64,000 bases of DNA, from assembly GCA_965209025.1 (NCBI GenBank), contig OZ242375.1:258302-322301 (forward strand), given 5' to 3'. The notes under the pieces were generated by a model, which saw nothing but the letters and a program-made list of their open reading frames with translations, searched no databases and had not been told where the DNA came from. Positions 9,445 to 35,963 of the stretch are shown here, one piece after another. Numbering within the stretch: the stretch's first letter is position 1; each line of letters begins with the position of its first letter. The DNA comes from Acidimicrobiia bacterium (GTDB lineage Bacteria; Actinomycetota; Acidimicrobiia; Spongiisociales; ZC4RG35). The translations under genes and the position numbers were made by a program.

Positions 9445-9516
9445 CAGGCGCCGGGGAGGGCGACGGGAGAGGAAAAGGCCGGGATGAGAGTCCGCCTTTC
9501 CTTACACTTTAACTAG

Positions 9517-11584: not shown

Positions 11585-11596
11585 CTCCGGCCGGAG

Positions 11597-13746: not shown

Positions 13747-13773
13747 TAGCTTTCAGGCGCACTTAAACAGGAG

Positions 13774-14070: not shown

Positions 14071-14073
14071 TCC

Positions 14074-16670: not shown

Positions 16671-16700
16671 GTCCTCGCCGGACGGCGGTCGGCTAGACTG

Positions 16701-18923: not shown

Positions 18924-18934
18924 CCAGTCCTTAG

Positions 18935-20809: not shown

Positions 20810-22557
20810 GGAGCCACACCGCCTCCCAGATAGGGTTGGAGACCGTGGGGGAGACGGTCACTCTGGCTGGGTGGGTGGACCGGAGACGGCACCACGGCGG
20901 GGTGGTGTTCGTGGACCTGCGGGACCACACCGGGATGGTGCAGGTGGTGCTGGATCCTGCGGGCATCCGGGAGTCGGCCGAGTTGCGGCGGGAGTTCTGC
21001 GTGCAGGTGGAGGGAAAGACCGTGCGTCGCCCCGAGGGCTCGGAGAATCCCGACATGGCCAGCGGGATGGTGGAGGTGGAGGCCTCGGAGTTGAGCATCC
21101 TGAGCCGGTCGGAGGAACTTCCCTTCCTCATCGAGGACCGCATCACCGCCGAGGAACTGCTTCGGCTGGAATACCGGTACCTGGACTTGCGCCGCCCCCG
21201 CATGGCCCGCAATCTCCGGGCCCGATCGGAGGCGCTGCGTACCGTTCGGCGGACGCTGGAGGACCTGGGGTTCTGGGAGGTGGAGACGCCCACCCTGATC
21301 CGGTCCACCCCCGAGGGGGCCCGGGACTTGCTGGTCCCGAGCCGCCACAACCCGGGGAGCTTCTACGCCCTTCCCCAGTCTCCCCAGATCTACAAGCAAC
21401 TGCTGATGGTGGCGGGGGTGAGCCGCTACTACCAGATGTGCCGGTGCTACCGGGACGAGGACTTCCGGTCCGACCGGCAACTCGAGTTCACCCAGATCGA
21501 CATCGAGGGGTCCTTCTGGGGACAGGAGGACGTGCTGGCCACCGTGGAGAAGGTGATCCTGGCAGTGGCGGCGGCGCTTCGACCGGATCAGACGCTCGAT
21601 GCCCCTTTCCGGCGGCTCACCTACTCAGAGGCGATGAGCCGCTACGGCACAGACAAACCAGACCTTCGCTTCGGCATGGAGATAGTCGAGTTGTCGGACG
21701 TGTTCGCCGACACCGGCTTCCGGGCGTTCGCCGGTGTCCTGGCGGCGGGAGGGGTGGTGAGGGGAATAAACGCCGGCCCGATATCCATGAGCCGGGCCCG
21801 GGCCGACGCCCTGATAGAGAAGGCCCGGCAGTTCGGAGCGGGAGGGCTGGTGTGGATGGTGGTGGAGGACGGGGGTGGTCTTCGCTCGCCGGTTGCGAAG
21901 TTCCTGTCCGACGCCGAACTCGACGGGGTGGTCCGGGGCCTGGGGGGGAATCCGGGCGACGCCCTGCTGCTGGTGGCGGACGCCGAGCGGACCGTCTCCG
22001 ACGTCCTGGGGCGTCTGCGGTCGGAGTTGGGACAGCCCGACGATCCCGAACGGCTGGAGTTCCTGTGGGTGGTGGACTTCCCCATGTTCGAGGAGCGTGA
22101 TGGAGAGATAACCTTCCTCCATCATCCGTTCACCTCCCCGGCGGACGTGGAGACGATGAGGGACCGTCCGCTGGAAGCCGCGGCGAAAGCCTACGACCTG
22201 GTCCTCAACGGCGTGGAGCTTGGTTCGGGGAGTGTCCGGATTCACGACTCCGACGTCCAGCGGAGGGTCTTCGAGATCCTGGGGATCTCCGACGACGAGG
22301 CGGAGGAGCGCTTCGGATGGTTCATCCGGGCCCTGCGTTTCGGCACGCCGCCCCATGCCGGCTTCGCGGTGGGATTCGACCGGCTGGTGGCGGTGCTTCG
22401 CGGGGTGGCGAGCATCCGGGAGATCATTCCGTTTCCCAAGACCCAGACCGGCGCCGAACCGCTGAGTCGCACTCCCGCCTCGGTCAGCAACCGGCAGTTG
22501 AAGGAACTGGGCATCGCGGTCGATCCCCGCCGGATCAAGGCCTCTCCGCCGGCTTAG
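20806..22557 (+). CDS. aspS: Aspartyl-tRNA synthetase
   Basis: GTG 20806 overlaps the hisS stop. OB-fold N-terminus (LAGWVDRRRHHGGVVFVDLRD), QSPQIYKQLLM and FRDEDFRSDRQLEFTQID motifs. The ORF-track frame from 20203 is a 5' over-extension. Confidence 0.9.
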   Translation: MRSHTASQIGLETVGETVTLAGWVDRRRHHGGVVFVDLRDHTGMVQVVLDPAGIRESAELRREFCVQVEGKTVRRPEGSENPDMASGMVEVEASELSILSRSEELPFLIEDRITAEELLRLEYRYLDLRRPRMARNLRARSEALRTVRRTLEDLGFWEVETPTLIRSTPEGARDLLVPSRHNPGSFYALPQSPQIYKQLLMVAGVSRYYQMCRCYRDEDFRSDRQLEFTQIDIEGSFWGQEDVLATVEKVILAVAAALRPDQTLDAPFRRLTYSEAMSRYGTDKPDLRFGMEIVELSDVFADTGFRAFAGVLAAGGVVRGINAGPISMSRARADALIEKARQFGAGGLVWMVVEDGGGLRSPVAKFLSDAELDGVVRGLGGNPGDALLLVADAERTVSDVLGRLRSELGQPDDPERLEFLWVVDFPMFEERDGEITFLHHPFTSPADVETMRDRPLEAAAKAYDLVLNGVELGSGSVRIHDSDVQRRVFEILGISDDEAEERFGWFIRALRFGTPPHAGFAVGFDRLVAVLRGVASIREIIPFPKTQTGAEPLSRTPASVSNRQLKELGIAVDPRRIKASPPA

Positions 22558-22562
22558 GAGCG

Positions 22563-23927
22563 ATGGCCAGCTACGGCGCCGATGACCTGTTCGCCGCCCG
22601 GCGGGCGGAGGTCCTGGCGGAGGTGGCGCCGCTGGCCGAGCGCATGCGTCCGAGGAGCCTGGACGAAGTGGTGGGATTGCCCGATCTCCTGGGCGCCGGG
22701 TCCGCCTTCCGGGTTCTGGTCGAGTCGGGCAGGCCCGTCTCGATGGTGTTGTGGGGCCCTCCGGGGAGCGGCAAGACCACCCTGGCCCGGTTGGTGGCCC
22801 TGCACTGTTCGGCGGCCTTCGAGACGCTCAGCGCCACCTCCGCCGGCGTAAAGCAGGTGAGGGAGATCCTGGCGTCCGCCCGTCGCCGCCTGGAGGGCGA
22901 CGGCCGGCGCACGGTGTTGTTCCTCGATGAGATACACCGCTTCTCCAAGAGCCAGCAGGACGCTCTGTTGCCGGGGGTGGAGAGCGGGACCCTGATCCTG
23001 ATCGGGGCGACCACCGAGAACCCCTTTTTCGAGATCAACAGTCCGCTGATGAGCCGGATGGTGTTGTTCCGCACTCACAAGATCCCTGACGAGGCGCTGG
23101 AGGTGCTGGTGGACAGGGCGCTGTCGGCGAGGCGACGAGGATTGGGAGAGGACGACCTGCAGATTGCCGGGGACGCCCGGGAGGCGCTGGTGACCAGGGT
23201 CGGCGGAGACGCCCGGGGACTGCTGAACGCCTTGGAGGTGGCGGCGCGTCTGGCCAAGGGCAGGGGGTCAGGAGTCATCGAGACCGATGACGTCTCCGAA
23301 GCGCTGGGACGTCGGATAGTTCGATACGACAAGGCGGGAGACCGTCACTACGACGTGATCTCCGCTTTTATCAAGAGCGTGCGAGGTTCTGATCCCGACG
23401 CCGCCCTGTACTGGCTGTTTCTCATGCTCGAGGGCGGCGAGGACCCCGAGTTCATCGCCCGCCGGCTCGTCATCCTCGCATCGGAGGACGTCGGTATGGC
23501 CGACCGGTGGGCGCTTCCGGTGGCGACTGCGGCGGCCCAGGCCCTCTCGTACGTGGGGATGCCCGAGGCCGCCTATCACCTGGCCCACGCCACCCTGTTC
23601 CTGGCTCAGGCGCCCAAGTCGAACTCGGTCACCTCCGCCATGGCCCGGGCGCGGTCGGCGGTCCGGGAGGGGCCCAGTCCCTCCGTCCCCCTTCATCTTC
23701 GCAGTGGTGGCTATCGTGGAGCAGACGTTATCGGACACGGGGAAGGCTACGTATACCCCCATGACCATCCGCACCACATCGTTCCCCAGGAATACTTCCC
23801 GCCCGAGGTGAATCCACAGGTGTTCTTCCGTCCCACCCAGAGCGGTTTCGAAGCTGAAGTCCGGCGACGCCTGATCGAGATCGATCACGTGTTGGGACGA
23901 GCCGGACGCCAGGAGGACCAGGCGTGA
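22563..23927 (+). CDS. rarA: Replication-associated recombination protein A (AAA+ ATPase RarA/MgsA)
   Basis: Walker A GPPGSGKTT, Walker B LFLDEIHRF, MgsA C-terminal helical domain. ATG at 22563. Confidence 0.85.
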   Translation: MASYGADDLFAARRAEVLAEVAPLAERMRPRSLDEVVGLPDLLGAGSAFRVLVESGRPVSMVLWGPPGSGKTTLARLVALHCSAAFETLSATSAGVKQVREILASARRRLEGDGRRTVLFLDEIHRFSKSQQDALLPGVESGTLILIGATTENPFFEINSPLMSRMVLFRTHKIPDEALEVLVDRALSARRRGLGEDDLQIAGDAREALVTRVGGDARGLLNALEVAARLAKGRGSGVIETDDVSEALGRRIVRYDKAGDRHYDVISAFIKSVRGSDPDAALYWLFLMLEGGEDPEFIARRLVILASEDVGMADRWALPVATAAAQALSYVGMPEAAYHLAHATLFLAQAPKSNSVTSAMARARSAVREGPSPSVPLHLRSGGYRGADVIGHGEGYVYPHDHPHHIVPQEYFPPEVNPQVFFRPTQSGFEAEVRRRLIEIDHVLGRAGRQEDQA

Positions 23928-24700
23928 CGGCTTTGGGAATAGACATAGGAGGATCGGGAGTCAAAGGCAATCTGGTGGACACCGCCACCGGAGCGCTCCT
24001 GTCCGAACGCTTTCGCATACCCACTCCCCGCTCGGGGTCCACCGAGGCGGTGGGCGAGGTGGTGGCGGAGATAGCCGAGCACTTCCGGCAAGAGAGCGGG
24101 CATGAAACCCTCCCGGTGGGGTGCGGGTTTCCCGGGGTGATCAGATCGGGCGTCGTAAGCGCCGCCACCCACCTGGACAAGGCCTGGCTGGGCGCCGACG
24201 TGGTCGCCATTCTCTCCGGGGCGGTCGGGAGCCCGGTCACCGTTCTCAACGATGCGGATGCGGCCGGGGTGGCCGAGATCACCTTCGGGTCGGCCAAGGA
24301 TCGGAGCGGCACGATCCTGATGATCACCCTCGGCACCGGGATAGGGAGCGGGATGTTCCGGGACGGCCGGCTGGTCCCCAATTTCGAACTGGGCATGCTG
24401 GAACTGGGCGGTCATCACCCCATCGAGGACCGGGTGGCCTACCGCGTATTCAAGCAGGGGGAGTTGAGTTGGAAGAAGTGGGCCAGACGGTTGAACCGCT
24501 ACCTACGGCATGTCAACGCGCTCTTCGCTCCGGACCTGATAGTTCTCGGGGGAGGAGGGGTGAACAAGTGGTCCCGCTTCGGCCACCGCCTGGATGTGCC
24601 GGTGGATGTGGCCCCCGCCCACTTCGGGAACCATGCCGGCATCGTCGGCGCCGCCCTGGCCGCGGTGAACCCGGGCGCCCTGATGGGGGATCCCGCCTAA
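23924..24700 (+). CDS. ppgK: ROK-family / polyphosphate glucokinase
   Basis: MTALGIDIGGSGVK sugar-kinase N-terminus and ROK-like core. GTG overlaps the rarA stop. Confidence 0.75.
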   Translation: MTALGIDIGGSGVKGNLVDTATGALLSERFRIPTPRSGSTEAVGEVVAEIAEHFRQESGHETLPVGCGFPGVIRSGVVSAATHLDKAWLGADVVAILSGAVGSPVTVLNDADAAGVAEITFGSAKDRSGTILMITLGTGIGSGMFRDGRLVPNFELGMLELGGHHPIEDRVAYRVFKQGELSWKKWARRLNRYLRHVNALFAPDLIVLGGGGVNKWSRFGHRLDVPVDVAPAHFGNHAGIVGAALAAVNPGALMGDPA

Positions 24701-24858
24701 GAGGACCTGGCCCGGTGTGGGTAGGGCTGGCGTACCAGTCATCACGTCCTTGTCCGTTTGGATCACCGGTTCTGAAACACTTTGGATACGGGTCTCCCCA
24801 CCACTCCAGAGGCTTTGGTTGGTCTCCGGGGTCGGTGCTGGGGTTCCGATCCGTGTGT

Positions 24859-25962
24859 TTAGCTGCTGTGGATGGGGGTGGGTAGGGTTTGGTCACCGCA
24901 GTACAGGGTTTGGTCACCGCGGTACGGGGATTGGGGTGGTTCGTTTGTCCAGTATTGGGCCGATGATCCTTTGGGGTAGTCCGCTCCGGGAATGGGTGGT
25001 GGTAACACGGTGGAGTTCTCCGAGCCATCGTAGACCGCACCTACCGCCTTGTAGTAGGTGCGGAGTTCATTGGCGTCGGTGACCAGCAACGGCAGTTTGC
25101 CTATCCCGATCCTCCCTCCGGTGACCGCGGTGCGGTTCTCTGCCGCCGCGCGTACTTGCTGTTCCAACTCGGCGAGGGGCATATTCAACCGGGCACGCGC
25201 TTCCGGAGTCCGAGCCAACCGTATGTTCTGGGAGACAGCTTTGGGTGGGTTGTCATCAGTTTTCTGCACAAACCACACGGCCAGTTCCAACTCGGTGGCC
25301 CAGGCTTCCACGGTGAGAGTGGGGATTCCAAGAAACAGTACGAGTTCTTTTCCTGCGTAGACTTCCTCGGCTCTGCTGGCCGGGAAATTCAACGTGTTGT
25401 CCACCCATGCATCCTCGCCTCCCTGCTGTTCTATAAAGCATTCCCGATACCCTCCATCGGTGGAAAGAAGTAACGACCGGCGATGTAGCGACGCGGTGAG
25501 GACCGGGGGTCCTTCTCCCACCAGATACTCATTTACCCTGACCTCCGCAAAACAATGCACATGCACGTGAGGCCTAGCAATTGAGTGGACACTCTCGCTT
25601 GTAAAGTTCGGCGGTTTGGCCTGGTAGTCGTCACACCGGAACGTGTCCGGTCGCACCGTTCCTCGGATAACTATATGCGGCATCAGTAGAGGTGATGTAA
25701 GATGCACCGGGCCCCATCCCCCTAGTAGTAGTTCGTTGGGGGTTGGCAGAGGATCCGGGAGACGTTCAGACAATTTCAACGAACTATCCGGTTCCCCTGG
25801 TTCGCAGGGATCTATGTCGCTTCCATCGATAGGAACACAGGGAGGGATCACTTGCTCAAGATGTGATTTCAATGTGGGTGTAGCAGCCGAAAACCAACAA
25901 CCGATTAGCCCCACAGCCAAGACCAGTCCCAGGGTTGCCAGTGTTGTTTTGGTTCTGGTCAT
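24859..25962 (-). CDS. Island paralog 1: secreted (possibly lipo-) protein of an unassigned family, 367 aa
   Basis: Signal peptide MTRTKTTLATLGLVLAVGLIGC. Shares with paralogs 2-4 the conserved blocks IPPC.P..G...DPC, VHCF..VRVNEYL.G.GPP, LFLGIPTLTVEAW and LPLLVTDAN.L..YY.AVGAVYD. C-terminus carries a YRGDQTL/YCGDQTL 7-aa tandem repeat. Confidence 0.7.
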   Translation of the reverse strand: MTRTKTTLATLGLVLAVGLIGCWFSAATPTLKSHLEQVIPPCVPIDGSDIDPCEPGEPDSSLKLSERLPDPLPTPNELLLGGWGPVHLTSPLLMPHIVIRGTVRPDTFRCDDYQAKPPNFTSESVHSIARPHVHVHCFAEVRVNEYLVGEGPPVLTASLHRRSLLLSTDGGYRECFIEQQGGEDAWVDNTLNFPASRAEEVYAGKELVLFLGIPTLTVEAWATELELAVWFVQKTDDNPPKAVSQNIRLARTPEARARLNMPLAELEQQVRAAAENRTAVTGGRIGIGKLPLLVTDANELRTYYKAVGAVYDGSENSTVLPPPIPGADYPKGSSAQYWTNEPPQSPYRGDQTLYCGDQTLPTPIHSS

Positions 25963-26095
25963 TCTGGTTCTCTTTGGCTTTGGATGGTCTCCTAGGTTCA
26001 GGGGTCTAGGGGTTCCGAGCCGGGTGGTTGGTCGTCGGCTCCGGGTATGGGTGGTGGTTTGGCGGGTGTTAGGGTGGGGTCGTCGTAGACAGCAT
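25921..26095. repeat. Paralog junction cassette, copy 1 (tail-coding, stop, about 40-nt spacer, start, signal-peptide coding)
   Basis: The tctggttctctttg(g/c)ctttggatggtctcc(t/a/g)aggttc(a/g)gg block and flanking sequence recur at the 5' ends of paralogs 1 and 3 and of the fragment. Confidence 0.6.
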
Positions 26096-26189
26096 CCGTT
26101 GGTGGTGAGTTAGCGGGCGCGGTGCCGCAGCTTTGCCCGACAGCAAGGACCAGTCCCAGAGTCACCAGTGTGGTTTTGGTTCTGGTCAT
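25998..26189 (-). pseudogene. Internally deleted remnant of a family member: signal peptide fused directly to the Pro-rich C-terminal tail (63 aa)
   Basis: The N-terminus MTRTKTTLVTLGLVLAVGQSCGTAPANSPPTDAV is near-identical to the paralog 3 N-terminus. It is followed immediately by YDDPTLTPAKPPPIPGADDQPPGSEP, which matches the paralog C-terminal tails. The whole core is missing. Confidence 0.55.
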
Positions 26190-26330
26190 TCTGGTTCTCT
26201 TTGCCTTTGGATGGTCTCCAAGGTTCGGGCGTTTAGGGGTTACGAGCCGGGTGGTTGGTCGTCTTCACCGGGGGTGGGTGGGGTTCCGTTCGGGGTTTCG
26301 TTTTCTCCGGTGTTGGCGGGCGGGCCGGGG
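26131..26330. repeat. Paralog junction cassette, copy 2
   Basis: Near-identical to 25921-26095 and 28655-28960 by eye. Confidence 0.6.
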
Positions 26331-27475
26331 AGTTGATCGGCACCAGGGACCGGTGGGGGTAGGACGGTGGAGTTTTCCGAACCGTCGTAGACCGCTCCGA
26401 CCGCTCCATAAAAGTCCCGCAGTTTGTTGGCGTCGGTTACCAGCATCGGAAGATCAGATGCCATCCCGATCCGCCCTCCGGTGACGGCAACACGGTTAGT
26501 GGCTGCCGCTTTCACTTGTCGTTCTAGTTCTGCCAATGTCAGGTTCATCCGGGCACGCTGCTCAGAAGTACGCGCCAGCCTTATGTTCCGTTCAACAACT
26601 CTCGGCGGGTTATTACCAGTTTGCTGCACAAACCACACGGCCATTAGCAACTCCGTCTCCCATGCTTCCACAGTGAGCGTGGGGATTCCAAGAAACAGCA
26701 CAAGTTCTTTACCTTCGTAAACCGCGCCTGTTCGGCGAGCAGGAAAGTCGAGGGCATTGTCCACCCATTGGTCCTCGCCCCCGTGCAGAGCTATAAACGA
26801 ATCACGATAGCCTCCATCAGTGGGAAGGTGTACTATTTCCCGGTGCAGCGACACAGTCAATTCTGGAGGTCCTGTCCCTACCAGATACTCGCTTACACGG
26901 ATTTGAGCGAAACAATGAACATGGACGATTAAGTCATGATATGGATGCAGTTCGGCAGCGTAGCTCGCGACCTTTAGTGGATAGTCTTCGCATCTGGTTG
27001 TACCAGGTTGCGGTGTGCCTCTGATGACTACGTGCGGCAGCAACAACGGGTCCGCAGTGCCTTGGGGACTCCACTTTCCTAATAGCAGGTCAGCCATGGT
27101 TGGCAGTGGGTCTGGCAGACCCTCAGAGGAGCCTTCCGCGGCGGCTTTCCGGACTCTGGTCGGTTCTCCAGGAACGCAGGGATCAGCGTCGCTGCCGTCT
27201 ATGGGTGTGCAGGGGGGAATGACTTCTTCCAGATATGCAGGAGGTGTTTCTTCTCGAGCCTGACCTGCCGTCACGTCTCTATAAGTATTGGCATCTTGCG
27301 TTCGCGCAGTTGTGGCTGTTGGTTCTTGAAGTGTGGTTACAGGGGTGGGAACGGTTACGTCGGGTTGGTCCGTGGTAGGTCCTGTTCCTGTAGCGGTTGT
27401 TTTGCAGGCTTGGATAAAAACCAGTGTTGCCAATAGCCACGGCAACGCTCTCCTCTTAGTTGTTGCACCTTTCAT
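26240..27475 (-). CDS. Island paralog 2: secreted protein of the same family, about 411 aa
   Basis: Start chosen at ATG 27475 (AGGAAG SD with 6-nt spacer). ATG 27493 is the alternative. Signal peptide ...LPWLLATLVFIQAC, Thr/Pro linker, conserved family blocks. Pro-rich tail PPPVPGADQLPGPPANTGENETPNGTPPTPGEDDQPPGS. Confidence 0.7.
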   Translation of the reverse strand: MKGATTKRRALPWLLATLVFIQACKTTATGTGPTTDQPDVTVPTPVTTLQEPTATTARTQDANTYRDVTAGQAREETPPAYLEEVIPPCTPIDGSDADPCVPGEPTRVRKAAAEGSSEGLPDPLPTMADLLLGKWSPQGTADPLLLPHVVIRGTPQPGTTRCEDYPLKVASYAAELHPYHDLIVHVHCFAQIRVSEYLVGTGPPELTVSLHREIVHLPTDGGYRDSFIALHGGEDQWVDNALDFPARRTGAVYEGKELVLFLGIPTLTVEAWETELLMAVWFVQQTGNNPPRVVERNIRLARTSEQRARMNLTLAELERQVKAAATNRVAVTGGRIGMASDLPMLVTDANKLRDFYGAVGAVYDGSENSTVLPPPVPGADQLPGPPANTGENETPNGTPPTPGEDDQPPGS

Positions 27476-27568
27476 GGCATTCTTCCTTGTCATCCGTTTA
27501 TCCGCAATGGATGAATCTTGGGCTCTACCTTCCCATGGGGTTCGAGGAGGCCGAAGGATGGCGGTGTG

Positions 27569-28723
27569 TCAGGGTGTGGGAGGAGGTGTTTGGTCATCGT
27601 CTCCGGGCACAGGGGGTTGGTTGTCATCTCCGGGGGTGGGTGGGGTTCCGTTCGGGGTCTCTTCTTCGCCGGTGTTGGCTGGTGGTTCTTCGGGGTCTTC
27701 TGCTCCGGGTACGGGTGGTGGTTTGGCGGGTGTTTGGGCGGGGTCGTCGTAGACGGCGCCGATGGCTCCGTAGTAGGTACTGAGCTGGTTGGCGTCGGTG
27801 ATGAGCAGGGGCAGGTTGGGGTCGGTTCCGACCCGTCCGCCGGTGTTCGCCTTTCGGGTGGCGTCCGCTTGGGTGATCTTGGTTCGGAAGTCGGTTAAGG
27901 AGAAGTCCAATAGTGCTAGGTTTTCGGGTGTCTGGGGGTATTCGTGTTTGTCGGGGGCGATCACCCTTATTACACCGCCTACTTGCTGCACATCCCAGAA
28001 AAACGTCATTTCCCAAGCTTCCATCCGAACGCTGAAGCCAGCGGAGAGGAACAGGACTCCTTCGACACCTTCGTATGTGTCGATGACCTGTTCGTCCAGG
28101 GGCTGGGAGTGTCCAGGATTCGACGGCCAATTCAAACCTGTGATGACGCTCAGTTGGGGAGGTCCTGTTCCCAGCAGGTATTCGTTCACCCGCACATCGG
28201 AGAAACAAAAGAGATATTCCCATCCTGCAAAAGCCTTTCGGATGCGTTCCTCCAAATACGTTGGCAGCGTTGTGGCGTGGATCTCACACCTGGTTGTGTC
28301 TGGCAGTACAGTGCCACGGATAAGAATGTGCGTGGAGCTAGTAGCTACCAGGTCCCAGTAGTTCAAGACTTCGTGGAGTGGGGGAGCGTGAACCTTTGTT
28401 TCTTCTGATAGCATTACACCGTCAGCGGGTTCGATGGAGGGTGGTGGTCCGGTTGCGCATGGGTCTCGGTTGGTTCCGGCCACCGGGGTGCACGGAGGAA
28501 TCGTTTCCTCCAGGTATGTGAGATTCGCCTCTTCTAGTGCAGGTGCGGTAGTTGTAGGGGTAGCCGTGGTAGTTGTGGTTGACCGTGGCTCTTTAGAGGG
28601 ACTGTGAGTGGTGGTTGTGACAACAGCATCCGTTGGTGGTGAGTTAGCGGGCGCGGTGCCGCAGCTTTGTCCGACAACAAGGACCAGTCCCAGAGTCACC
28701 AGTGTGGTTCTTGTTCTGGTCAT
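27569..28723 (-). CDS. Island paralog 3: secreted protein of the same family, about 384 aa
   Basis: Start at ATG 28723 (MTRTRTTLVTLGLVLVVGQSCG). The ORF-track start at 28825 would overlap the paralog 4 tail. Thr-rich linker, conserved blocks, Pro-rich tail. Confidence 0.7.
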   Translation of the reverse strand: MTRTRTTLVTLGLVLVVGQSCGTAPANSPPTDAVVTTTTHSPSKEPRSTTTTTATPTTTAPALEEANLTYLEETIPPCTPVAGTNRDPCATGPPPSIEPADGVMLSEETKVHAPPLHEVLNYWDLVATSSTHILIRGTVLPDTTRCEIHATTLPTYLEERIRKAFAGWEYLFCFSDVRVNEYLLGTGPPQLSVITGLNWPSNPGHSQPLDEQVIDTYEGVEGVLFLSAGFSVRMEAWEMTFFWDVQQVGGVIRVIAPDKHEYPQTPENLALLDFSLTDFRTKITQADATRKANTGGRVGTDPNLPLLITDANQLSTYYGAIGAVYDDPAQTPAKPPPVPGAEDPEEPPANTGEEETPNGTPPTPGDDNQPPVPGDDDQTPPPTP

Positions 28724-28960
28724 TCTGGTTCTCTTTGCCTTTGGATGGTCTCCGAGGTTCGGGCGTTTAGGGTTCCGAGCCGGGTGGTTCATCATCGTCA
28801 CCGGGGACGGGTGGGGTTTGATCATCGCCGGGGGTGGGTGGGGTTCCGTTCGGAGTCTCGTTTTCGCCGGTGTTGGCGGGTGGGTTTTCGGGGTCTTCGG
28901 CTCCGGGGACTGGTGGTGGTTTGGCGGGTGTTTGGGTGGGGTCGTCGTAGACGGCGCCGA
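28655..28960. repeat. Paralog junction cassette, copy 3 (paralog 4 tail / paralog 3 start)
   Basis: Same conserved block. The Pro-rich tail coding sequence of paralog 3 (27590-27760) is also shared. Confidence 0.6.
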
Positions 28961-29939
28961 TGGCTCCGTAGTGGGTACTGAGTTTGTTGGCGTCGGTGAT
29001 CAGCAGGGGCAGGTTTGGGTCGGTGCCGACCCGCCCTCCGGTGTTCGCCGTTCGGGTGGCTGCTGCTTGGGTGATCTTGGTCCGGAAGTCTTCAAGGGTG
29101 TTGTCCAACAGTGCAAGGTTCTCTGTTGTTTGGGGGTATTCGTGTTTGTCGGGAGCGATCACCCTTGTTACACCGCCGACTTGCTGCACGTCCCAGAAGT
29201 ACACCATTTCCCAGGCTTCAAGTTGAAGGTTGAAACCCGTGGAGAGAAAGAGGATCCCTTCGACGCCCTCGTATGTGTCGATGACCTGTTCGTCCAGAGG
29301 CGGCCCCAGACGGTACTCAGGACCCAGCGGCCGATCCCAATTCGTAATCACGCTCAGTTGGGGAGGTCCTGTTCCCAGCAGGTACTCGTTTACCCGCACA
29401 TCGGAGAAACAATAGAGATGCTCCCATCCGGCAAAACGCTTTCGGTCAAAATCATCCCAATACGTTGGCAGAGTTAAGAGGAAGATCTGACACCTGGTCG
29501 TGTCTGGCAGTACAGTGCCCCGCAGAACTATATGAACCGACCTAGCAGGATCCCTGTCTCTGTAATTCAAGACTTCGTGGAGTGGGGGAGCGTAAACCTT
29601 TGCTGCTTCTGATATCATTACACCATCATCGGGCTCGATGGAGGGTGGTGTTCCGGCAGCGCAGGGGTCTCGGTTTGTTCCGGCTACCGGGGTGCATGGA
29701 GGAATCGTTTCCTCTAGATATGCAGCGTTCGCTTCCTCTTTTGCGACCCTTGACGGAGTTGCGGTTGTTGTAGGCGCAGCCGTGATGGTTGTGGTTGGCC
29801 GCAACTCTAATGAAGGGTTGTGAGTGGTGGTCGTGACAACAGCATCCGTTGGCGGTGAGTTAGCGGGTGCGGTGCCGCAGGCTTGCGCGATGACCCATAC
29901 CAAACTTGTGACAACTAGCAGGGTTTTGGGGGTGTTCAT
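28767..29939 (-). CDS. Island paralog 4: secreted protein of the same family, about 390 aa
   Basis: Start at ATG 29939 (MNTPKTLLVVTSLVWVIAQAC, with an AXA-type cleavage site), AAGGA 8 nt upstream, 29 nt after the giant gene's stop. About 80% identical to paralog 3. Confidence 0.7.
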   Translation of the reverse strand: MNTPKTLLVVTSLVWVIAQACGTAPANSPPTDAVVTTTTHNPSLELRPTTTITAAPTTTATPSRVAKEEANAAYLEETIPPCTPVAGTNRDPCAAGTPPSIEPDDGVMISEAAKVYAPPLHEVLNYRDRDPARSVHIVLRGTVLPDTTRCQIFLLTLPTYWDDFDRKRFAGWEHLYCFSDVRVNEYLLGTGPPQLSVITNWDRPLGPEYRLGPPLDEQVIDTYEGVEGILFLSTGFNLQLEAWEMVYFWDVQQVGGVTRVIAPDKHEYPQTTENLALLDNTLEDFRTKITQAAATRTANTGGRVGTDPNLPLLITDANKLSTHYGAIGAVYDDPTQTPAKPPPVPGAEDPENPPANTGENETPNGTPPTPGDDQTPPVPGDDDEPPGSEP

Positions 29940-29968
29940 CTTCTTTGTCCTTTCGTTCTCCCCTGGTG

Positions 29969-32900
29969 TTATGGTGTGTTGTCTGATTGGTAGAGTGCTT
30001 TGAGGGCGACGATGTCCATCGGTTGTGGTGCACATATGCGATTCGTTGTAGGGGCGGTGTCAGTTTTCTTTCTCATGATGCTTTCGTTGGGGTTTGTCGT
30101 GGCGTGTCCCAGACCCCAGATGTGACCCGCTTCGTGAGTGGCAACTTCGAGGCGCAGAGAGCAGTTGTTTCCTCCTGCCCATGTGGCATCCGTGGGTCCT
30201 TTCACGAAAAACATGGCGTATTTGGTGTATCCGCTTACATTGGGATCGAACGGCGGTACGACAGCTAATGCTGTGTCCGAGAGTTTCGGGTAGTACACCT
30301 TTACCTGTGTGCTGGTTTGGAGTGAGACTCTTCTGGTGTCTTCTTCAAGGCAGTTGTCGCCGGATTCTTGGGTGATTACGGATGAGCTGATGTTTCGGCC
30401 GTCTGGTGTGGTGAAGCCTTGCATGGCTGTGGTCCATTTGGTGAATCCTTGTTTGATTTCGTTGATCCATGTTTGGGTCATATCTTTTGTGCATATTTTG
30501 TAGGCGTAGTGGAGGGGTGACAGATCGTGACGGTAGGGTATCCCGGCTACGCTAAACCCGCCGCTGGTTGATGGTTCCTCCGCAGTTGTAAAAACGAGAA
30601 TGGTTTCGCTGGACCAGGGCGATTGGTCTGCTGCGTTGCCGGATCGCACTTGGACGGCGTAAAGGCGGCTGATCCGCAGCCCGGTGATCGCATAAGATGT
30701 GCTGGTGATCTTGTCGGATACCGGGGTCCAGGTGCCGCTGCAGGTCGGGGGATCGGCGCACGTTTTGTATCGGACCTTGTAGTACTCGGCGGTGGTGGCC
30801 GGAGCGTCGGTGGTGGACACGGGGTTCCATGTCATCTTGATCTGGGCTTCGTCGGGTCGTAGATGAACGTGTGCGGTTGGGCTGTGTCCGTTGGCGCGTA
30901 GTCCTGTGGGCGTGGGTGGAGCGCCTGTGACTGTCCAGGTGGTGACGGGTTCGGACCATTGGGATTGGTGGTGTTGGTAGCCGGTGGTGGTGTCGTTGGC
31001 GCGGATGTGGATCCGGTAGTTTCGGCCGATGGTGAGGGTGCTGTGGGTTCCGGTGTTTTTGACTATTTTGACCGTGAACACTCCTTGGGAGTCGGGTGCG
31101 ATTTCCAGTTGGTTTGTGCCGGTGCAGTCGTTCCCGGTGCCGTCTCCTACGCAGTAGGCCTGTTGGGTGGTTACCGTGTCGGGGCAGTCGCTGCCTGTTT
31201 CGACGCAGTATGTGATGTCGTAGCCTTGTGCGTGGGCTACTTGGTTCCATTTGATGTTCAACGCGGGGGTTTGTGGGTGGGCCAGGTTGAACCCGTCGGC
31301 GACTACTCCGGTGGGTTTTGCCAGTAGTAGGGATGTTTCGATGGTGTGGGATCCGAGGTTGGTGGTGGTGGTGCTGGTGCGGCTGATCTCGATCCGGTAG
31401 TCAACGGATCCGGTGGTGAGCCCGGGTGGGTTCCATTCGACGAGGTTGCCGTGCACGGTGGAGGTTTGGGAGGCAAGGTCGGTGGTGGTTCCGACGGTTC
31501 CTGCTGTTATTTCTGCCCAGGTGAGGACGAACGGCACGCTTGAGGAGACCTCGAGTTTGATCTTGTCGGGTGTTACGTCTCTAAGGGTGTATCGCTTGGC
31601 GTAGACGGTTTCGGTGGTGCTGGTGCGATGGACGGCCTTGCAGTCGGTGGTCCAGTCGTGTCTGGTGGTTGTTTGTGGCAGGTCCGTGGTGCAGGCGTCT
31701 GTGGAGGGCGGAACAGTGGTCGTAGTAGTAGTGGTGGTGGTGGTCGTAGTGGTGGTGGTGGTGGAGCGGGTGGTTTGTTTGGTGACGGTTCGTTCGCAGG
31801 TGGGCGGGTTGGTGGTTTTGTTCAGGGTGTATTCGGTTGGGCAGGACCAAACGGGATCGATTGTGGTCGGTCGGGTGGTTTGTTTGGTTACGGTCCTTTT
31901 GCAGGTGGGTGGATCGGTGGTTTCGTCCAAGGTGTAGCCGGTTCCGCAGGACCATTGGGTTTCGGTTGTGGTCGGTTGGGTGGTTTCTCGGGTTACTGGG
32001 CGGGAGCAGGTGGGCGAGAGCCCGGATTCGCCTTCCACACCACCTCCGCTGGCTCCTGATTGGGGACCGATGCCTTTTTGGTATCCGGGCGGGCAGGAAT
32101 AGGTTGTTTGGATGGTGGCGTTGCGCGTGGTTTCTCGGGTGATTGTGCGGGAGCAGGTGGGTGAGAGACCCGATTCACCCTCGACGCCGCCGCTGTTGCC
32201 GGTGGGTCCTGTTTGGCCGCCGATGCCTTTTTGGTATCCGGGGGGACAGGAGAAGGTGGTTTGGGTGGTGGCGTTGCGCGTGGTTTCTCGGGTGATTGTG
32301 CGGGAGCACGTGGGCGAGAGCCCGGATTCGCCTTGGGCGCCACCGTCGCCGCTGCTGCCGGTGGGTCCTGTTTGGCTGCCGAGGCCTTTTTGGTATCCGG
32401 GGGGACAGGTCCAGTCTGTCCGTGATGAAGCGTTGCGGGTGGTGTCGCGAGTGATGGTGCGGGAGCAGGTGGGTGAGAGCCCGGATTCGCCTTCCACGCC
32501 GCCGTCGTCGTTGTTGTTTCCGCTGCTGCCGCCGGCTTGTGATTGGCCGCCGAGGCCTTTTTGGTATCCGTCGGGGCAGGTGAAAGTTGTCCGGATTGAA
32601 GCGGTAAGAGTGGTGGAACCCGACCGCCTGTAAGAACAGATGGACTCGTTTCGGCTGCTGTACGAGTAAGTGGCCGGTGCCGACGGGCACGAATACGATG
32701 TGGTGGCGGTGCGGGTGGTGCTGGTCGACCGCGTGTAAGTACAAGTAGTTCCGCTGCGGCTGCTGTACGTATAGGTGGCCGGCGCCGACGGGCACGAATA
32801 CGATGTGGTGGCGGTGCGGGTGGTGCTGGTCGACCGCGTGTAAGTACAAGTAGTTCCGCTGCGGCTGCTGTACGAATAGGTGGAAGGCGCCGACGGGCAG

Positions 32901-34471
32901 GAGTAGAGGGTGGTGGCGGTGCGGGTGGTGCTGGTCGATCGGGTGTAGGTGCAGGTGGTGCCGCTGCGGCTGCTGTACGAATAGGTGGAAGGCGCCGACG
33001 GGCACGAATATGACGTTCGGGCGGTGCGGGTGGTGGAACCCGACCGCGTGTAATAACACGTCGACCCGACCCGATGACTATACGAAAACGTAGAAGGAGC
33101 ACCGGGGCAGTTATACCCCGCAGTGGGGTGTGCCACAGCCCTGCGGGTAGTGGTCGTGGATCGGGTGTACGTACAGGTGGTGCCGTTTCGGCTGCTGTAG
33201 GAGTAGGTAGATGGCGCCGACGGGCACGAATATGAGGTGGTGGCGGTGCGGGTGGTGGAACCCGACCGCGTGTAATAACAGGTGGAACCACTCCTCCTGC
33301 TATAGGTGAAGGTCCCCAACGAACCGGGACACGAATACGACGTGTTAGCGGTGCGGGTAGTGGAACTCGACCGCGTGTACGTACAAGTGGACCCGCTCCG
33401 GCTGCTGTACGAATACGTAGAAGGAGCAGAGGGGCACGAGTAGGAGGTGTTGGCGGTGCGGGTGGTGGACCCCGACCTCGTGTACGTGCAAGTGGACCCG
33501 CTTCGGCTGCTGTACGAGAACGTGGAAGGCGCAGAAGGGCACGAATACGATGTGGTGGCGGTGCGGGTGGTGCTGGTCGACCGGGTGTAAGTGCAGGTTC
33601 TGCCGCTCCTGCTGCTGTAGGTGTAGGTGGCGGGCGCAGCCGGACACGTGTACACCGTCGTCCCGGTGGCGTCGATCGTCTCGGTGTCCTCATACGTGTA
33701 ATGACAGACAGACCCGTCTCGTCGGACGAACGCCAATCCGTCCTCGGTCGGACACGTGTACACCGTCGTTCCGGTGGCGTCGATCGTCTCGGTGTCCTCG
33801 TAGGTGTAGTGACAGACAGACCCGTCTCGTCGGACGAACGTCAGTCCGTCCTCGGTGGGACAGGTGTACACGGTGGTGCCGGTGGCGTCGATCGTTTCGG
33901 TGTCCTCGTAGGTGTAGTGGCAGACAGACCCGTCCCGCCGAACAAATGTCAGGGTGGCTTCGGTCGGACACGAGTAGGTCGTGGTTCCGGTGGCGTCGAT
34001 GGTTTCTGTGTCCTCGTAGGTGTAGTGGCAGACAGACCCGTCTCGTCGGACGAACGTGTACCCCGCAGGCGACGGACACTCCTCAACGGTCGACGAAGTC
34101 GCTGCTGTGCTTTCGACGCTCTCGTAGGTGTAATGACACGTTGACCCGTCCTTCCGGACCAGCGTGTACCCCGCAGGCGACGGGCACACCTCTTCGGTCG
34201 TGCCCGTGTCAGTAGCAGGTACGCTCTCAACCTCCTCGTAGGTGTAATGACACGTCGAACCGTCCCGCCGGACAAACGTCAGCCCCTCCGGCATCGGGCA
34301 GGCACCGTTGGAACCAGCCTCCAAACTGACCCACCCATTGTCCTCCAGTCCCATCCCGCCGACCGCCAACGGCACAACCGACAACAAAGCCCCCAACGCC
34401 ACAACGGCCACCAGTCCCGACCTTCCCCTCCTCGACCTTCCCCCCCTCGCTCTCCGGTAGGGACTGGCCAT
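29969..34471 (-). CDS. Giant secreted multi-repeat protein (1500 aa) with C-terminal metzincin-type zinc metalloprotease domain
   Basis: ATG 34471 is preceded by AGGAGG with a 5-nt spacer. Arg-rich signal peptide. Three families of Cys-containing tandem repeats, a run of about 17 Thr, beta-rich modules, and HEAGHIWGLGH (encoded at 30104-30136, minus strand) followed by a SIM Met-turn. Confidence 0.85.
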   Translation of the reverse strand: MASPYRRARGGRSRRGRSGLVAVVALGALLSVVPLAVGGMGLEDNGWVSLEAGSNGACPMPEGLTFVRRDGSTCHYTYEEVESVPATDTGTTEEVCPSPAGYTLVRKDGSTCHYTYESVESTAATSSTVEECPSPAGYTFVRRDGSVCHYTYEDTETIDATGTTTYSCPTEATLTFVRRDGSVCHYTYEDTETIDATGTTVYTCPTEDGLTFVRRDGSVCHYTYEDTETIDATGTTVYTCPTEDGLAFVRRDGSVCHYTYEDTETIDATGTTVYTCPAAPATYTYSSRSGRTCTYTRSTSTTRTATTSYSCPSAPSTFSYSSRSGSTCTYTRSGSTTRTANTSYSCPSAPSTYSYSSRSGSTCTYTRSSSTTRTANTSYSCPGSLGTFTYSRRSGSTCYYTRSGSTTRTATTSYSCPSAPSTYSYSSRNGTTCTYTRSTTTTRRAVAHPTAGYNCPGAPSTFSYSHRVGSTCYYTRSGSTTRTARTSYSCPSAPSTYSYSSRSGTTCTYTRSTSTTRTATTLYSCPSAPSTYSYSSRSGTTCTYTRSTSTTRTATTSYSCPSAPATYTYSSRSGTTCTYTRSTSTTRTATTSYSCPSAPATYSYSSRNESICSYRRSGSTTLTASIRTTFTCPDGYQKGLGGQSQAGGSSGNNNDDGGVEGESGLSPTCSRTITRDTTRNASSRTDWTCPPGYQKGLGSQTGPTGSSGDGGAQGESGLSPTCSRTITRETTRNATTQTTFSCPPGYQKGIGGQTGPTGNSGGVEGESGLSPTCSRTITRETTRNATIQTTYSCPPGYQKGIGPQSGASGGGVEGESGLSPTCSRPVTRETTQPTTTETQWSCGTGYTLDETTDPPTCKRTVTKQTTRPTTIDPVWSCPTEYTLNKTTNPPTCERTVTKQTTRSTTTTTTTTTTTTTTTTVPPSTDACTTDLPQTTTRHDWTTDCKAVHRTSTTETVYAKRYTLRDVTPDKIKLEVSSSVPFVLTWAEITAGTVGTTTDLASQTSTVHGNLVEWNPPGLTTGSVDYRIEISRTSTTTTNLGSHTIETSLLLAKPTGVVADGFNLAHPQTPALNIKWNQVAHAQGYDITYCVETGSDCPDTVTTQQAYCVGDGTGNDCTGTNQLEIAPDSQGVFTVKIVKNTGTHSTLTIGRNYRIHIRANDTTTGYQHHQSQWSEPVTTWTVTGAPPTPTGLRANGHSPTAHVHLRPDEAQIKMTWNPVSTTDAPATTAEYYKVRYKTCADPPTCSGTWTPVSDKITSTSYAITGLRISRLYAVQVRSGNAADQSPWSSETILVFTTAEEPSTSGGFSVAGIPYRHDLSPLHYAYKICTKDMTQTWINEIKQGFTKWTTAMQGFTTPDGRNISSSVITQESGDNCLEEDTRRVSLQTSTQVKVYYPKLSDTALAVVPPFDPNVSGYTKYAMFFVKGPTDATWAGGNNCSLRLEVATHEAGHIWGLGHATTNPNESIMRKKTDTAPTTNRICAPQPMDIVALKALYQSDNTP
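31990..32600. repeat. Intragenic tandem repeat family C (about 156 nt / 52 aa, 4 copies)
   Basis: Protein unit: CPPGYQKGIGGQTGPTGNSGGVEGESGLSPTCSRTITRETTRNATIQTTYS. DNA copies are more than 90% identical. Confidence 0.75.
32600..33640. repeat. Intragenic tandem repeat family B (about 105 nt / 35 aa, roughly 10 copies)
   Basis: Protein unit: SYSCPSAPSTYSYSSRSGTTCTYTRSTSTTRTATT. Near-identical DNA copies (the ggtggcggtgcgggtggtgctggtcgaccgcgtgtaagtacaagtagttcc block recurs). Confidence 0.8.
33640..34300. repeat. Intragenic tandem repeat family A (about 108 nt / 36 aa, roughly 8 copies)
   Basis: Protein unit: CPTEDGLTFVRRDGSVCHYTYEDTETIDATGTTVYT. Several copies are nucleotide-identical. Confidence 0.8.
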
Positions 34472-34637
34472 AAATGCCTCCTACCACCCACCCTAAACAC
34501 CATCCGCACACTATGCACACAGAGTTTTCATAAAAATCCCAATCATCTTCACTAAAATATCAACAATTCGACCCGATCACTCCCTATATGGCCACCAAGT
34601 GGGAGCGACTCCCGTCCGGGCCCCGAGCGGGGGTGGG
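34472..34637 (-). promoter_or_regulatory. AT-rich putative promoter/leader of the giant gene, with a consensus Shine-Dalgarno
   Basis: Contains gagttttcataaaaatcccaatcatcttcactaaaatatcaacaattcg. This is the most AT-rich stretch in the window. AGGAGG lies 5 nt before the ATG. Confidence 0.4.
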
Positions 34638-35963
34638 TCAGATGTCGTCGGTCTGGCGGTTAATGAAGGCAGAGAAGCGACTCACCTGGTCGGGGGGGAG
34701 CCTGACTACCAAATCCATTCCTTCGGGGCCCTCGCTCGAGGAGAGAACTTCTCCTGTGCGGTGGAGAGCCGCTAACGCATCTCCTCGGGCGTAGGGCACC
34801 CGCACCGAGATGGTCGAGGAGCGGGCGTTCAGCCATTGGGTGAGGGTCTCCATCAGTTTCTCGGTTCCCTCTCCGGTGAGCGCCGACACGGCGACTGCGG
34901 TCTCGGAGGCTCCTAAGAGGCGCCGGACCACTGTGGAAGACGCCTCATCGATCTTGTTCACCACGATGATGGTCGGCACCGAGTCCGCCCCGATCTCGGC
35001 CAGGACCTCCCGGACCGCCTCGATTTGGCCTTCCGGATCGGATTCGGCGGCGTTCACGAGATGGAGTATCAGGTCGGCGTCGCGGACCTCCTCCAGAGTG
35101 GACTGGAAAGCTTCGACCAGGCGGTGGGGGAGTCTCCGCACGAATCCCACGGTGTCGGCCATGAGCATCTCCCGGCCTCCTGGTAGCCGGAGGCGGCGGA
35201 TGGTGGGATCCAGGGTGGTGAACAGGCGGTCTTCGGTGAGCACCCCGGCGCCGGTCAGCTGGTTTAGGAGGGTCGACTTGCCGGCGTTGGTGTAACCGAC
35301 CAGGGCGATGATGGGCACTGCGGCCTGGACGCGGGATTGGCGCCGGGTTTGGTTCTGCCGCCTAAGGGCGGCGAGGTCCTTCTCGAGGGAGGTGATCCTC
35401 TGGCGGATGCGGCGGCGGTCGCTCTCGAGGCGGGTCTCTCCCGGTCCCCGGGTTCCGATCCCTCCCGCCTGCTGGGAAAGCTCCTCGCCCGTGCCGCGAA
35501 GACGGGGCAGCCGGTAGCGCAGCAGCGCAAGTTCCACCTGGAGCGCTCCCTCCCGGGAGTTGGCGTGCTGGGCGAAGATGTCGAGGATCACCGCTTCGCG
35601 GTCCACGACGTCACATTCGAACAGTCCCTGCAGGTTGCGTTGCTGTGCGGGGGTGAGGGCATTGTCGAACACCACCACGTCGATGTCCTCTGCTTTGGTG
35701 ATGTCGGCCACTGACGCTGCCTGGCCCTTGCCGATGAACAGCCCCGGATCGGGAGCGGGCCGGTTGAACACCTCCCGGTCGACCGGCTCGGACCCGGCGG
35801 TGTCGGTCAGCAGAGCCAACTCTTCGAGGGACTGTTCCACCTCGAGAGATGAGTTGCGCCCCAAACGCACTCCCACCAGGAAGGCTCTCTGGCGGGGTAC
35901 CTCGAGGTCTGCAACCGTGGCGGTGAGCCGGCGGCGTTCCCGGCCGAGATGTTGATAAGTCAT
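34638..35963 (-). CDS. hflX: GTPase HflX
   Basis: HflX N-terminal domain plus G-domain GYTNAGKSTLLN, DTVGF, NKID. Confidence 0.9.
   Translation of the reverse strand: MTYQHLGRERRRLTATVADLEVPRQRAFLVGVRLGRNSSLEVEQSLEELALLTDTAGSEPVDREVFNRPAPDPGLFIGKGQAASVADITKAEDIDVVVFDNALTPAQQRNLQGLFECDVVDREAVILDIFAQHANSREGALQVELALLRYRLPRLRGTGEELSQQAGGIGTRGPGETRLESDRRRIRQRITSLEKDLAALRRQNQTRRQSRVQAAVPIIALVGYTNAGKSTLLNQLTGAGVLTEDRLFTTLDPTIRRLRLPGGREMLMADTVGFVRRLPHRLVEAFQSTLEEVRDADLILHLVNAAESDPEGQIEAVREVLAEIGADSVPTIIVVNKIDEASSTVVRRLLGASETAVAVSALTGEGTEKLMETLTQWLNARSSTISVRVPYARGDALAALHRTGEVLSSSEGPEGMDLVVRLPPDQVSRFSAFINRQTDDI

Follow-up and report, generated by a model that had tools for sequence, protein, structure and literature searches.

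We analysed a 64,000-nucleotide stretch of an Acidimicrobiia genome (contig OZ242375.1; called the window and numbered from its first letter), and in particular the island at 24701-34637 (no strand assigned) which occupies the interval between the stop codons of ppgK (24700) and hflX (34638). Both flanking genes were identified by NCBIfam equivalog models (ppgK: NF045942, 268.7 bits with a cut-off of 250; hflX: TIGR03156, 446 bits). Their 3' ends converge on the block, as described in the initial annotation; aspS and a gene for a RarA-like ATPase are located upstream and moaA lies beyond hflX. All island genes are encoded on the minus strand, are separated by intergenic gaps of 29-75 nt and are preceded by a 166-bp AT-rich leader, an arrangement which predicts one operon with a large protease gene first, followed by four lipoprotein paralogues. 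The leader (34472-34637, minus strand; guanine-cytosine (GC) content 52%, with 39.5% at 34500-34580) is presumed to be the promoter region, and a sigma-70 scan found no site within it. Of the six minus-strand genes initially annotated, we find five intact and one, the supposed sixth, that is only a 63-codon remnant; every product has an N-terminal signal or lipobox sequence, in agreement with the claim that the block encodes secreted proteins.

The first gene (29969-34471, minus strand) encodes, according to its open reading frame (ORF) and translation, a protein of 1500 aa, secreted or located at the surface, whose N-terminus is an Arg-rich signal or anchor sequence. Residues 58-895 (31787-34300, minus strand) form a two-cysteine repeat region, delimited by a regular-expression count and by tandem arrays in the DNA: about 20 copies of the module C-P-x6-8-[FY]-x-x-R-x-G-x-x-C-x-Y-T plus longer variants were counted up to residue 895 (examples are CPTEDGLTFVRRDGSVCHYT and CPSAPSTYSYSSRSGSTCTYT), and the DNA arrays have periods of 105-159 nt (105, 108 and 153 nt among them) at 73-87% identity. 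Matches of this region to L24e, DUF3310, YdjO and HicA in Pfam and NCBIfam were rejected as summed weak matches to VRRDG-type hairpins that represent no true family. In the translation, the repeats are followed by a poly-threonine linker of 16 residues (residues 904-919; 31715-31762, minus strand) and by fibronectin type III (FN3)-like modules, the last of which (30641-30859, minus strand) scores above the Pfam cut-off (PF00041, 29.6 bits, cut-off 25), has FN3 matches in the PDB and abuts the protease domain.

This C-terminal domain (residues 1280-1500; 29972-30634, minus strand) is predicted from Pfam PF00413 and its motifs to be a matrixin-like metzincin zinc endopeptidase, an assignment that we consider borderline. 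It carries the zinc motif HEAGHIWGLGH at 30104-30136 (residues 1446-1456), the Met-turn SIM at residues 1464-1466 and the C-terminal motif DIVALKALYQS. Against Pfam Matrixin the isolated catalytic domain reached 25.4 bits (cut-off 24) and the full protein 19.9 bits; the pass is borderline and the match spans only profile positions 108-158 of 159. Five of the six protease family members match Pfam Matrixin, and a profile of six homologues found MMP-20, -11, -10, -12, -1 and karilysin as best PDB matches, all of them weak (E = 0.002-0.02) and confined to the zinc-binding third of the catalytic domain. No cysteine-switch motif resembling PRCGxPD is visible in the 1500-aa sequence. When homologues were sought with the 576-aa C-terminal part, only two proteins came back, and none did with the 221-aa catalytic domain, probably due to a word-index limit; the protease alignment was assembled from neighbouring loci.

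The four lipoprotein paralogues follow in descending order of number on the minus strand, with lengths of 367-417 aa counted from the likely true starts. Paralogue 4 (28767-29939) begins 29 nt past the protease stop and comprises 390 aa from MNTPKT in an ORF extending to 30035, paralogue 3 (27569-28723) comprises 384 aa from MTRTRTT in an ORF extending to 28825, and paralogues 2 (26240-27493) and 1 (24859-25962) have 417 aa and 367 aa, respectively. All four have a signal peptide ending in Cys, which is followed by a Thr/Pro-rich linker in three of them; paralogue 1 has the canonical lipobox LIGC and no such linker. Their cores share the motifs YLEE-IPPC-P..G...DPC, H-[IV]-[VL]-[IL]-RGT, TRC, CF..[VI]RV.EYL.G.GPP, TGGR[IV]G, LP[LM]L[VI]TDAN and GA[VI]GAVYD, and end in a PPP[VI]PGA tail. 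Sequence identity is 78% within the pair of paralogues 3 and 4, 61% within that of paralogues 1 and 2, and about 38% from one pair to the other. The same spacer precedes each paralogue, from which growth of the array by whole-unit duplication is suggested. A target of a diversity-generating retroelement was also considered and rejected, as neither a reverse transcriptase nor a template repeat was found and the strong excess of A on the coding strand stems from Thr codons.

Between paralogues 2 and 1, a 63-codon ORF (25998-26189, minus strand) was delineated by ORF search and alignment. At the DNA level, 26089-26238 matches the 5' end of paralogue 3 (28623-28772) with 97% identity, and in translation a signal peptide and lipobox resembling those of paralogue 3 run straight into the C-terminal tail (..DAV joined to YDDP..PPPIPGA..). 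Judged by this alignment, the ORF is the internal-deletion remnant of a fifth paralogue copy, and it appears to have been formed by recombination between tandem paralogues at a short ..GATGCTGT.. match.

The paralogues belong to a large family which is not covered by the reference models: scans of the paralogues with Pfam, NCBIfam and PADLOC gave no model, the source carries no annotation for them, and none of 87 family members has a Pfam match at E up to 1. When 1.84 billion cluster representatives were searched with the family profile, 829 clusters matched at a threshold of E <= 1e-3 and 415 matched at E <= 1e-30. In 77 of the 87 aligned members a signal-peptide Cys is located after a hydrophobic stretch (median position 23); 76 of these 77 carry A, S or G at lipobox position -1, position -3 is mostly L, A, V or I, and position -2 is often a non-canonical Q. 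By these signals, the family members are very probably lipoproteins. Several genomes have multiple family copies, and on the window's own 2.6-Mb contig, where paralogue 2 is on record, a further member (P0097) is found elsewhere. No member was found on viral contigs, and a scan of JGI metagenomes gave only two family loci. Some members contain two to four tandem copies of the family domain with FN3 between them; in P0145 and P0158 there are three or four. In P0260 (1335 aa) and P0231 (981 aa) the family domain is fused to leucine-rich repeats (LRR), FN3 and cadherin repeats. Both layouts are typical of 'eukaryote-like' surface proteins.

To compare the locus with that of its relatives, one genome per species was scanned with HflX, yielding eleven close relatives, all of them Acidimicrobiia or unclassified metagenome-assembled genomes (MAGs). 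We read the isolate codes RHO, SB and Plut as pointing to samples from sponges and corals; Rhopaloeides odorabile is among the hosts covered in PMC8163846. In ten relatives (L002-L010 and L022; HflX 75-96% identical, with 96% in L002) the block is absent, the end of ppgK is found 30-1400 bp from hflX and the order aspS - rarA-like - ppgK / hflX - moaA is retained. DNA homology to these ten relatives ends at 24663-24720 and restarts at 34647-34685, i.e. at the two stop codons, and no remnants of the cassette were detected in their ppgK-hflX spacers by blastn and tblastn. Because ten relatives lack the block and homology breaks at both stop codons, the block is confirmed to be an insertion, a single gain being far more parsimonious than many precise losses. 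The closest relative (L001; HflX 96% identical) is uninformative for the block, since its contig ends 184 bp past hflX; this tail (11315-11498 of L001) matches neither the island of the window nor the island proteins, and the break may mark another repeat-rich insert.

The gene arrangement had initially been described as conserved across Actinobacteria, which was too broad: ppgK-hflX adjacency is limited to a close Acidimicrobiia clade and is missing from the other 69 hflX loci fetched, including those of Rhodococcus, Corynebacterium and Actinopolyspora. Within this clade the ppgK-hflX spacer looks like a hotspot for insertions or cargo, because two relatives hold other cargo there. In L004 (11379-12626, minus strand) the spacer encodes a 415-aa Doc/Fic-type toxin (TIGR01550, 59.9 bits, cut-off 38.65) with the motif HCFHNGNKRTG and without an obvious antitoxin gene, and in L009 (11520-12377, plus strand) it contains an unrelated 285-aa ORF with only faint PADLOC PDC-S18 matches. 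Upstream of ppgK in the window, the longest ORFs of aspS and of the RarA-like ATPase (20203-22557 and 22317-23927, plus strand) overlap by 240 nt; as family matches begin only at about residue 200 (aspS) and residue 89 (RarA-like), the true starts of both probably lie a good way past the first start codon in frame.

The composition of the island differs from that of its surroundings. Its GC content is 58.5%, compared with 66.5% in the left flank (1-24700) and 64.7% in the right flank (34638-64000); per kb, values of 0.55-0.59 at 25-32 kb, down from 0.64-0.70, and 0.61-0.64 at 32-35 kb were obtained, against 0.61-0.70 elsewhere in the window. In one hundred 2-kb windows outside the island, GC had a mean of 0.655, a standard deviation of 0.017 and a minimum of 0.607, which places the island mean 4.4 standard deviations below. 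GC at third codon positions (GC3) was 0.595, 0.517 and 0.597 in the three lipoprotein paralogues scored and 0.714 in the large gene, against 0.74-0.91 in the flanking genes. Synonymous codon shares were shifted in the same comparison (Thr-ACA 0.29 in the island and 0.03 outside, Gly-GGA 0.44 and 0.20, Val-GTA 0.20 and 0.04). Tetranucleotide usage of the two island halves correlated with the rest of the window at 0.55 and 0.34, against 0.87-0.93 for every other 5-kb block. The AT-richness seen by eye in the initial annotation, which had placed the stretch correctly, is borne out by GC, GC3, codon choice and tetranucleotide usage: the AT-rich stretches it named (27300-27540, 29860-30600 and 34500-34580) have a GC of 0.519, 0.520 and 0.395. 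Outside the island, an 891-aa gene at 53702-56377 (plus strand) has GC and GC3 (0.606 and 0.735) below those of its neighbours; its residues 110-460 match a branched-chain amino-acid ABC (ATP-binding cassette) substrate-binding protein (E = 2e-45), with long unmatched extensions on either side.

Taken together, the absence in relatives, the composition and the secretion signals support the original interpretation as a horizontally acquired or lineage-specific surface-protein island. The additional description as 'fast-evolving', if understood as evolution in place, did not hold: the paralogues are only about 38-78% identical to each other and thus far more diverged than the flanks are from the closest relative, which argues that the array arrived pre-assembled. 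It is very unlikely that the block was instead ancestral to the clade and deleted in the relatives, with a composition that mirrors its unusual amino-acid usage instead of a foreign source. The abundance of Thr, Pro and Ser in the products does skew base composition, and the closest relative L001 has no sequence more than 184 bp beyond hflX, but GC3 and synonymous codon choice differ beyond amino-acid content, the ten genomes without the block (HflX 75-96%, including L002 at 96%) would require many independent precise deletions, and homologous cassettes are found at unrelated sites elsewhere. We consider it extremely improbable that DNA of another organism was joined into the contig by an assembly or binning artefact. 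Such errors come to mind since the source is evidently metagenome-derived, the relatives are all MAGs and the repeats of the large gene could mislead assemblers; on the other hand, both junctions lie exactly at gene ends with intact flanking genes, paralogue 2 is recorded on a 2.6-Mb contig that also bears P0097, and several contigs of megabase size from other samples have equivalent low-GC cassettes with housekeeping genes on either side.

As for the usual hallmarks of a horizontal island, absence at the site in relatives and foreign composition are both seen, and mobility signatures are missing at this locus. Scans of the island for tRNA genes and Rfam matches gave no result, direct or inverted repeats common to the two island ends were not found beyond chance, and none of its five products, which occupy nearly the whole island, matches an integrase or transposase family. 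The initial statement that no integrase, tRNA or direct-repeat boundaries are visible thus agrees with the tRNA, repeat and family scans.

Related cassettes were found at nine further loci carrying family members (L081-L089), in varied genomic contexts. The cassette is located between coaE and uvrB in L081, beside a major facilitator superfamily (MFS) gene and cob genes in L082, in an island adjoining smpB in L083, and between cytochrome and rex-nuo operons in L089. In L084 an IS21 insertion sequence is inserted in the lipoprotein array, and in L088 the cassette is next to ISL3 fragments. In L085, two IS4-like (DDE_Tnp_1) copies in inverted orientation enclose the family lipoprotein P0032 and a 242-aa metzincin-domain frame (6320-13423), and this composite element splits an AMP-binding (acyl-CoA synthetase-like) gene into 5040-5345 and 13466-14224. 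The island of the window is most likely one occurrence of a mobile operon that encodes a stalked matrixin-like protease together with a lipoprotein family and recurs at unrelated chromosomal sites. The lipoprotein genes are GC-poorer than the flanks at every locus (0.46-0.51 vs 0.65-0.76 in L081; 0.41-0.53 vs 0.64-0.74 in L089). Low GC is a trait of the lipoprotein genes and not of the whole cassette, because in L089 (6760-12905) the protease gene has a host-like GC of 0.65-0.67 and the two lipoprotein genes 0.41-0.53. The L083 member, P0004, is found in a block of about 15 kb (4299-19045) with HTH_3 regulators, a RES-domain gene and many small ORFs, a classical island position beside the usual tmRNA locus.

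Pairing of the protease with the lipoproteins was invariable. In 10 of 10 loci (the window plus the nine further loci) a metzincin domain stops 14-300 nt upstream of a co-oriented family lipoprotein gene, ends in ..D[IV]xA[IVL][KN]A[LIV][YH]QS (also given as ..YQS[RG]) and keeps HExxHxxGxx[HD] and the Met-turn, the last residue of the zinc motif being H or D. Full-length large proteins ending in the metzincin are encoded in L081, L082, L084, L088 and L089, and frames of the size of the catalytic domain in L083 and L085. The N-terminal parts of the large proteins vary among loci while the C-terminal metzincin is constant: two-cysteine repeats are present in the proteins of L081, L082, L084 and L089 and absent from the 1354-aa protein of L088. 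Pairwise identities of the catalytic domains and of the adjacent lipoproteins correlated with r = 0.84 over 15 pairs, much of which is driven by one close pair. Paralogues 4 and 3 are nearest to the lipoproteins of L082, whose protease is also nearest to that of the window, and paralogue 4 is 59% identical to the protease-adjacent lipoprotein of this locus. Paralogues 1 and 2 are nearest to the lipoprotein of L083 (60% identity for paralogue 1), where the metzincin domain is just 27% identical to that of the window.

The lipoprotein core was also modelled. AlphaFold gave confident models, with a pLDDT of 82 for paralogue 2 (243 of its 417 residues reach 90 or more) and a pLDDT of 87.6 with a pTM of 0.88 for the trimmed core of paralogue 3. 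In both models the core is predicted as an oligonucleotide/oligosaccharide-binding (OB)-type barrel that appears nearest to the netrin-like (NTR) fold of tissue inhibitors of metalloproteinases (TIMPs), with the meteorin NTR domain, a hookworm netrin-domain protein and sizzled ranked lower. The first Foldseek match in the PDB was TIMP-2 at E = 0.47, which is not significant, and there was no significant match at all. The near-invariant cysteines C95, C106, C168 and C194 (paralogue 2 numbering) are located in the N-terminal segment (PPC..DPC) and in the barrel (TRC, xCF). In TIMPs, disulfides tie the N-terminal segment to the barrel, and the conserved cysteines of the paralogues would be compatible with disulfides of this type. 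Membership in the TIMP or NTR sequence families (PF00965, PF01759) was not found, and we regard the resemblance as a lead of moderate strength at the level of the predicted fold. Recent transfer from an animal host was considered and rejected, as the lipoproteins have no sequence similarity to eukaryotic NTR or TIMP proteins.

On this basis we propose the following working model. A ready-made operon would have been gained horizontally into the ppgK-hflX spacer of a sponge-associated Acidimicrobiia genome. The stalk of disulfide-type two-cysteine repeats, the poly-Thr linker and the FN3 modules would carry the zinc endopeptidase at the far end of a surface or secreted protein, and the membrane-anchored lipoproteins would bind it at the cell surface. 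Binding would most likely inhibit or gate the protease and thereby spare the producer's own envelope, and the lipoproteins may also be cleaved and released by it. Paralogues 4 and 3, which are next to the protease, would be of the cognate type, and paralogues 1 and 2 would be 'orphan' partners of a subtype that is paired elsewhere with a different metzincin. That the lipoproteins are a cognate inhibitor or regulator of the metzincin, possibly cleaved by it, is in our judgement, by analogy with known pairs, the likeliest of the readings considered, and as a proposition evenly balanced. The data show that the block is inserted, which domains it encodes, that protease and lipoprotein genes are paired, that such cassettes recur elsewhere and that the predicted fold resembles known ones. 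Binding or inhibition of the protease by the lipoproteins, the protease target (host matrix or other cells) and the transfer route are what we infer from the genes and their arrangement. As a more speculative extension, which we hold to be improbable, sponge-associated Acidimicrobiia may exchange a mobile cassette that combines a protease resembling matrix metalloproteinases (MMPs) with a new bacterial class of TIMP/NTR-fold lipoprotein inhibitors, and may use it to cut the matrix of an early-branching animal or to shield themselves from such cutting; the system would then be a counterpart, and possibly a relative, of the metazoan MMP-TIMP system, and the lipoproteins may inhibit host MMPs.

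Several observations weigh against the proposed inhibitor function and its path of arrival. OB folds are common, and NTR modules also act as plain binding domains. The family profile found nothing in the PDB even at E = 10, and hhalign of this profile with the N-domains of TIMP-1, -2 and -3 gave 0.16% probability (the TIMP-2 query was checked to be 100% identical to 1br9). TIMPs inhibit via a free N-terminal cysteine, whereas the conserved PPC motif of the lipoproteins is internal, behind lipid anchor and linker. In L086 and L087 the protease has shrunk to 61-68-aa remnants while the family lipoprotein persists; because of these remnants and of the LRR, cadherin and FN3 fusions in P0260 and P0231, the family domain, as judged from gene content, has a role independent of an adjacent protease gene. 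Transfer machinery and a donor were not found, and the nearest homologues are only 46-72% identical.

Some of these points would fit lipoproteins that are adhesins or variable surface antigens and bind host matrix in the way the agrin NtA domain binds laminin, with the protease as sheddase or matrix remodeller that releases or processes them; the two would be enzyme and substrate, or would work side by side, and no inhibition would be involved. We consider this possible, yet doubtful. It would account for the fusion of the family domain to LRR, cadherin and FN3 (P0260, P0231), for its tandem arrangement with FN3 (P0145, P0158) and for lipoprotein genes kept without an intact protease in L086 and L087; moreover, Listeria Mtz cleaves Tim off the membrane (PMC8235301), and sponge symbionts are enriched in proteins with FN3 and cadherin domains, FN3 standing out in Actinobacteriota (PMC8163846). 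However, a specific protein-protein partnership is the better fit for the strict head-to-tail order at all 10 of the 10 loci and for the divergence that is correlated between the partners, and non-identical paralogues in tandem, orphan subtypes among them, are seen more typically in arrays of inhibitor or immunity genes.

Arrays of this kind raise the question of interbacterial toxin-immunity systems, in which the protease would attack envelope proteins or the cell wall of competitors and the lipoproteins would confer immunity, with the extra paralogues directed against the proteases of neighbours. We regard this as unlikely. A repeat-rich N-terminal part, a C-terminal enzyme domain and a small partner gene directly after it would agree with such a system, as would paralogues that follow one another without being identical, and further partner genes preceded by truncated C-terminal pieces of the protease (L083, L085, L086 and L087); the deletion remnant resembles recombination among tandem immunity genes as reported in PMC9484751, metallopeptidase toxin domains are known in polymorphic toxins (PMC3482391), and the Listeria pair acts on the bacterial cell wall (PMC8235301). 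Against this stands the C-terminal domain, which is always the same metzincin although its swapping is the hallmark of polymorphic toxins, and lipoprotein immunity proteins are rare in the survey describing them (PMC3482391). No RHS, WXG, LXG or other trafficking domain was found, nor secretion-system genes nearby. The island also has no PADLOC match, which says little on interbacterial toxins, as PADLOC covers anti-phage systems only.

Genomic islands as such are nothing unusual, and proteases that are paired with a lipoprotein have been described before. New are, judging from the sequences, an undescribed lipoprotein family of more than 800 clusters that is strictly linked to a matrixin-like metzincin on a two-cysteine-repeat stalk, and its spread as a low-GC cassette through these genomes, of which several are sponge-associated Acidimicrobiia; no description of the cassette turned up in a literature search on metzincins in sponge symbionts. 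Sponge Actinobacteriota have few ankyrin- or LRR-type 'eukaryote-like' repeat proteins, which are thought to stabilise other symbionts, and collagenase genes were absent from the sponge MAGs of a large survey (PMC8163846). With its stalked protease, the mobile and strain-variable cassette would be a concrete candidate for contact with host matrix or neighbours. Should the lipoproteins turn out to be inhibitors, bacterial metzincins would have a third kind of OB-fold lipoprotein partner besides the potempins and Listeria Tim, and this family would be by far the largest of the three.

Four known systems invite comparison. Polymorphic toxin loci (Zhang et al., 2012, PMC3482391) share with the cassette a repeat-rich large protein with a C-terminal enzyme domain and a small partner gene, as well as divergent partner arrays, truncated C-terminal fragments and mobile loci; they differ in that the C-terminal type is constant here, known trafficking or releasing domains are missing and the partner is a large lipoprotein. 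On these predicted features the cassette is outside the classical polymorphic-toxin definition, because its C-terminal type is constant and it has no trafficking domains. The metazoan MMP/TIMP system is similar in that the protease is matrixin-like by Pfam and PDB matches and the partner barrel appears nearest to NTR/TIMP in two models; unlike TIMPs, the lipoproteins are lipid-anchored with a long linker before the conserved Cys, have no free N-terminal Cys unless processed, and have extra helices and a C-terminal subdomain. The potempins of Tannerella forsythia are lipoprotein inhibitors co-transcribed with their target KLIKK peptidases, several of them with an OB fold of five strands; PotA inhibits the MMP-like karilysin, and potempins shield the surface of the producer itself (Ksiazek et al., 2022, PMC9890683). 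As here, they are membrane-anchored OB-fold lipoproteins co-encoded with an MMP-like peptidase, but they have 98-132 residues and are encoded upstream of the peptidase, whereas the family described here has a core of about 260-290 residues and is encoded downstream; host phylum and envelope differ, and no sequence relationship was seen. In Listeria monocytogenes, the secreted metzincin Mtz (LMRG_00713) is followed by the TIMP-like lipoprotein Tim (LMRG_00714), which it cleaves and releases (Boichis et al., 2021, PMC8235301). Compared with this pair, the protease of the island is a 1500-aa stalked multidomain protein, the lipoprotein is present in four copies plus a remnant, and the island has no cI/cro-like switch or phage link. 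In both systems a metzincin with HExxHxxGxxH/D and a Met-turn is directly followed by the gene of a lipobox lipoprotein, the fold of which is predicted to resemble TIMP without sequence similarity (Tim being compared by description), and the Listeria pair, like the cassette, is found on a horizontally acquired element and has been reported across many Gram-positive bacteria (PMC8235301).

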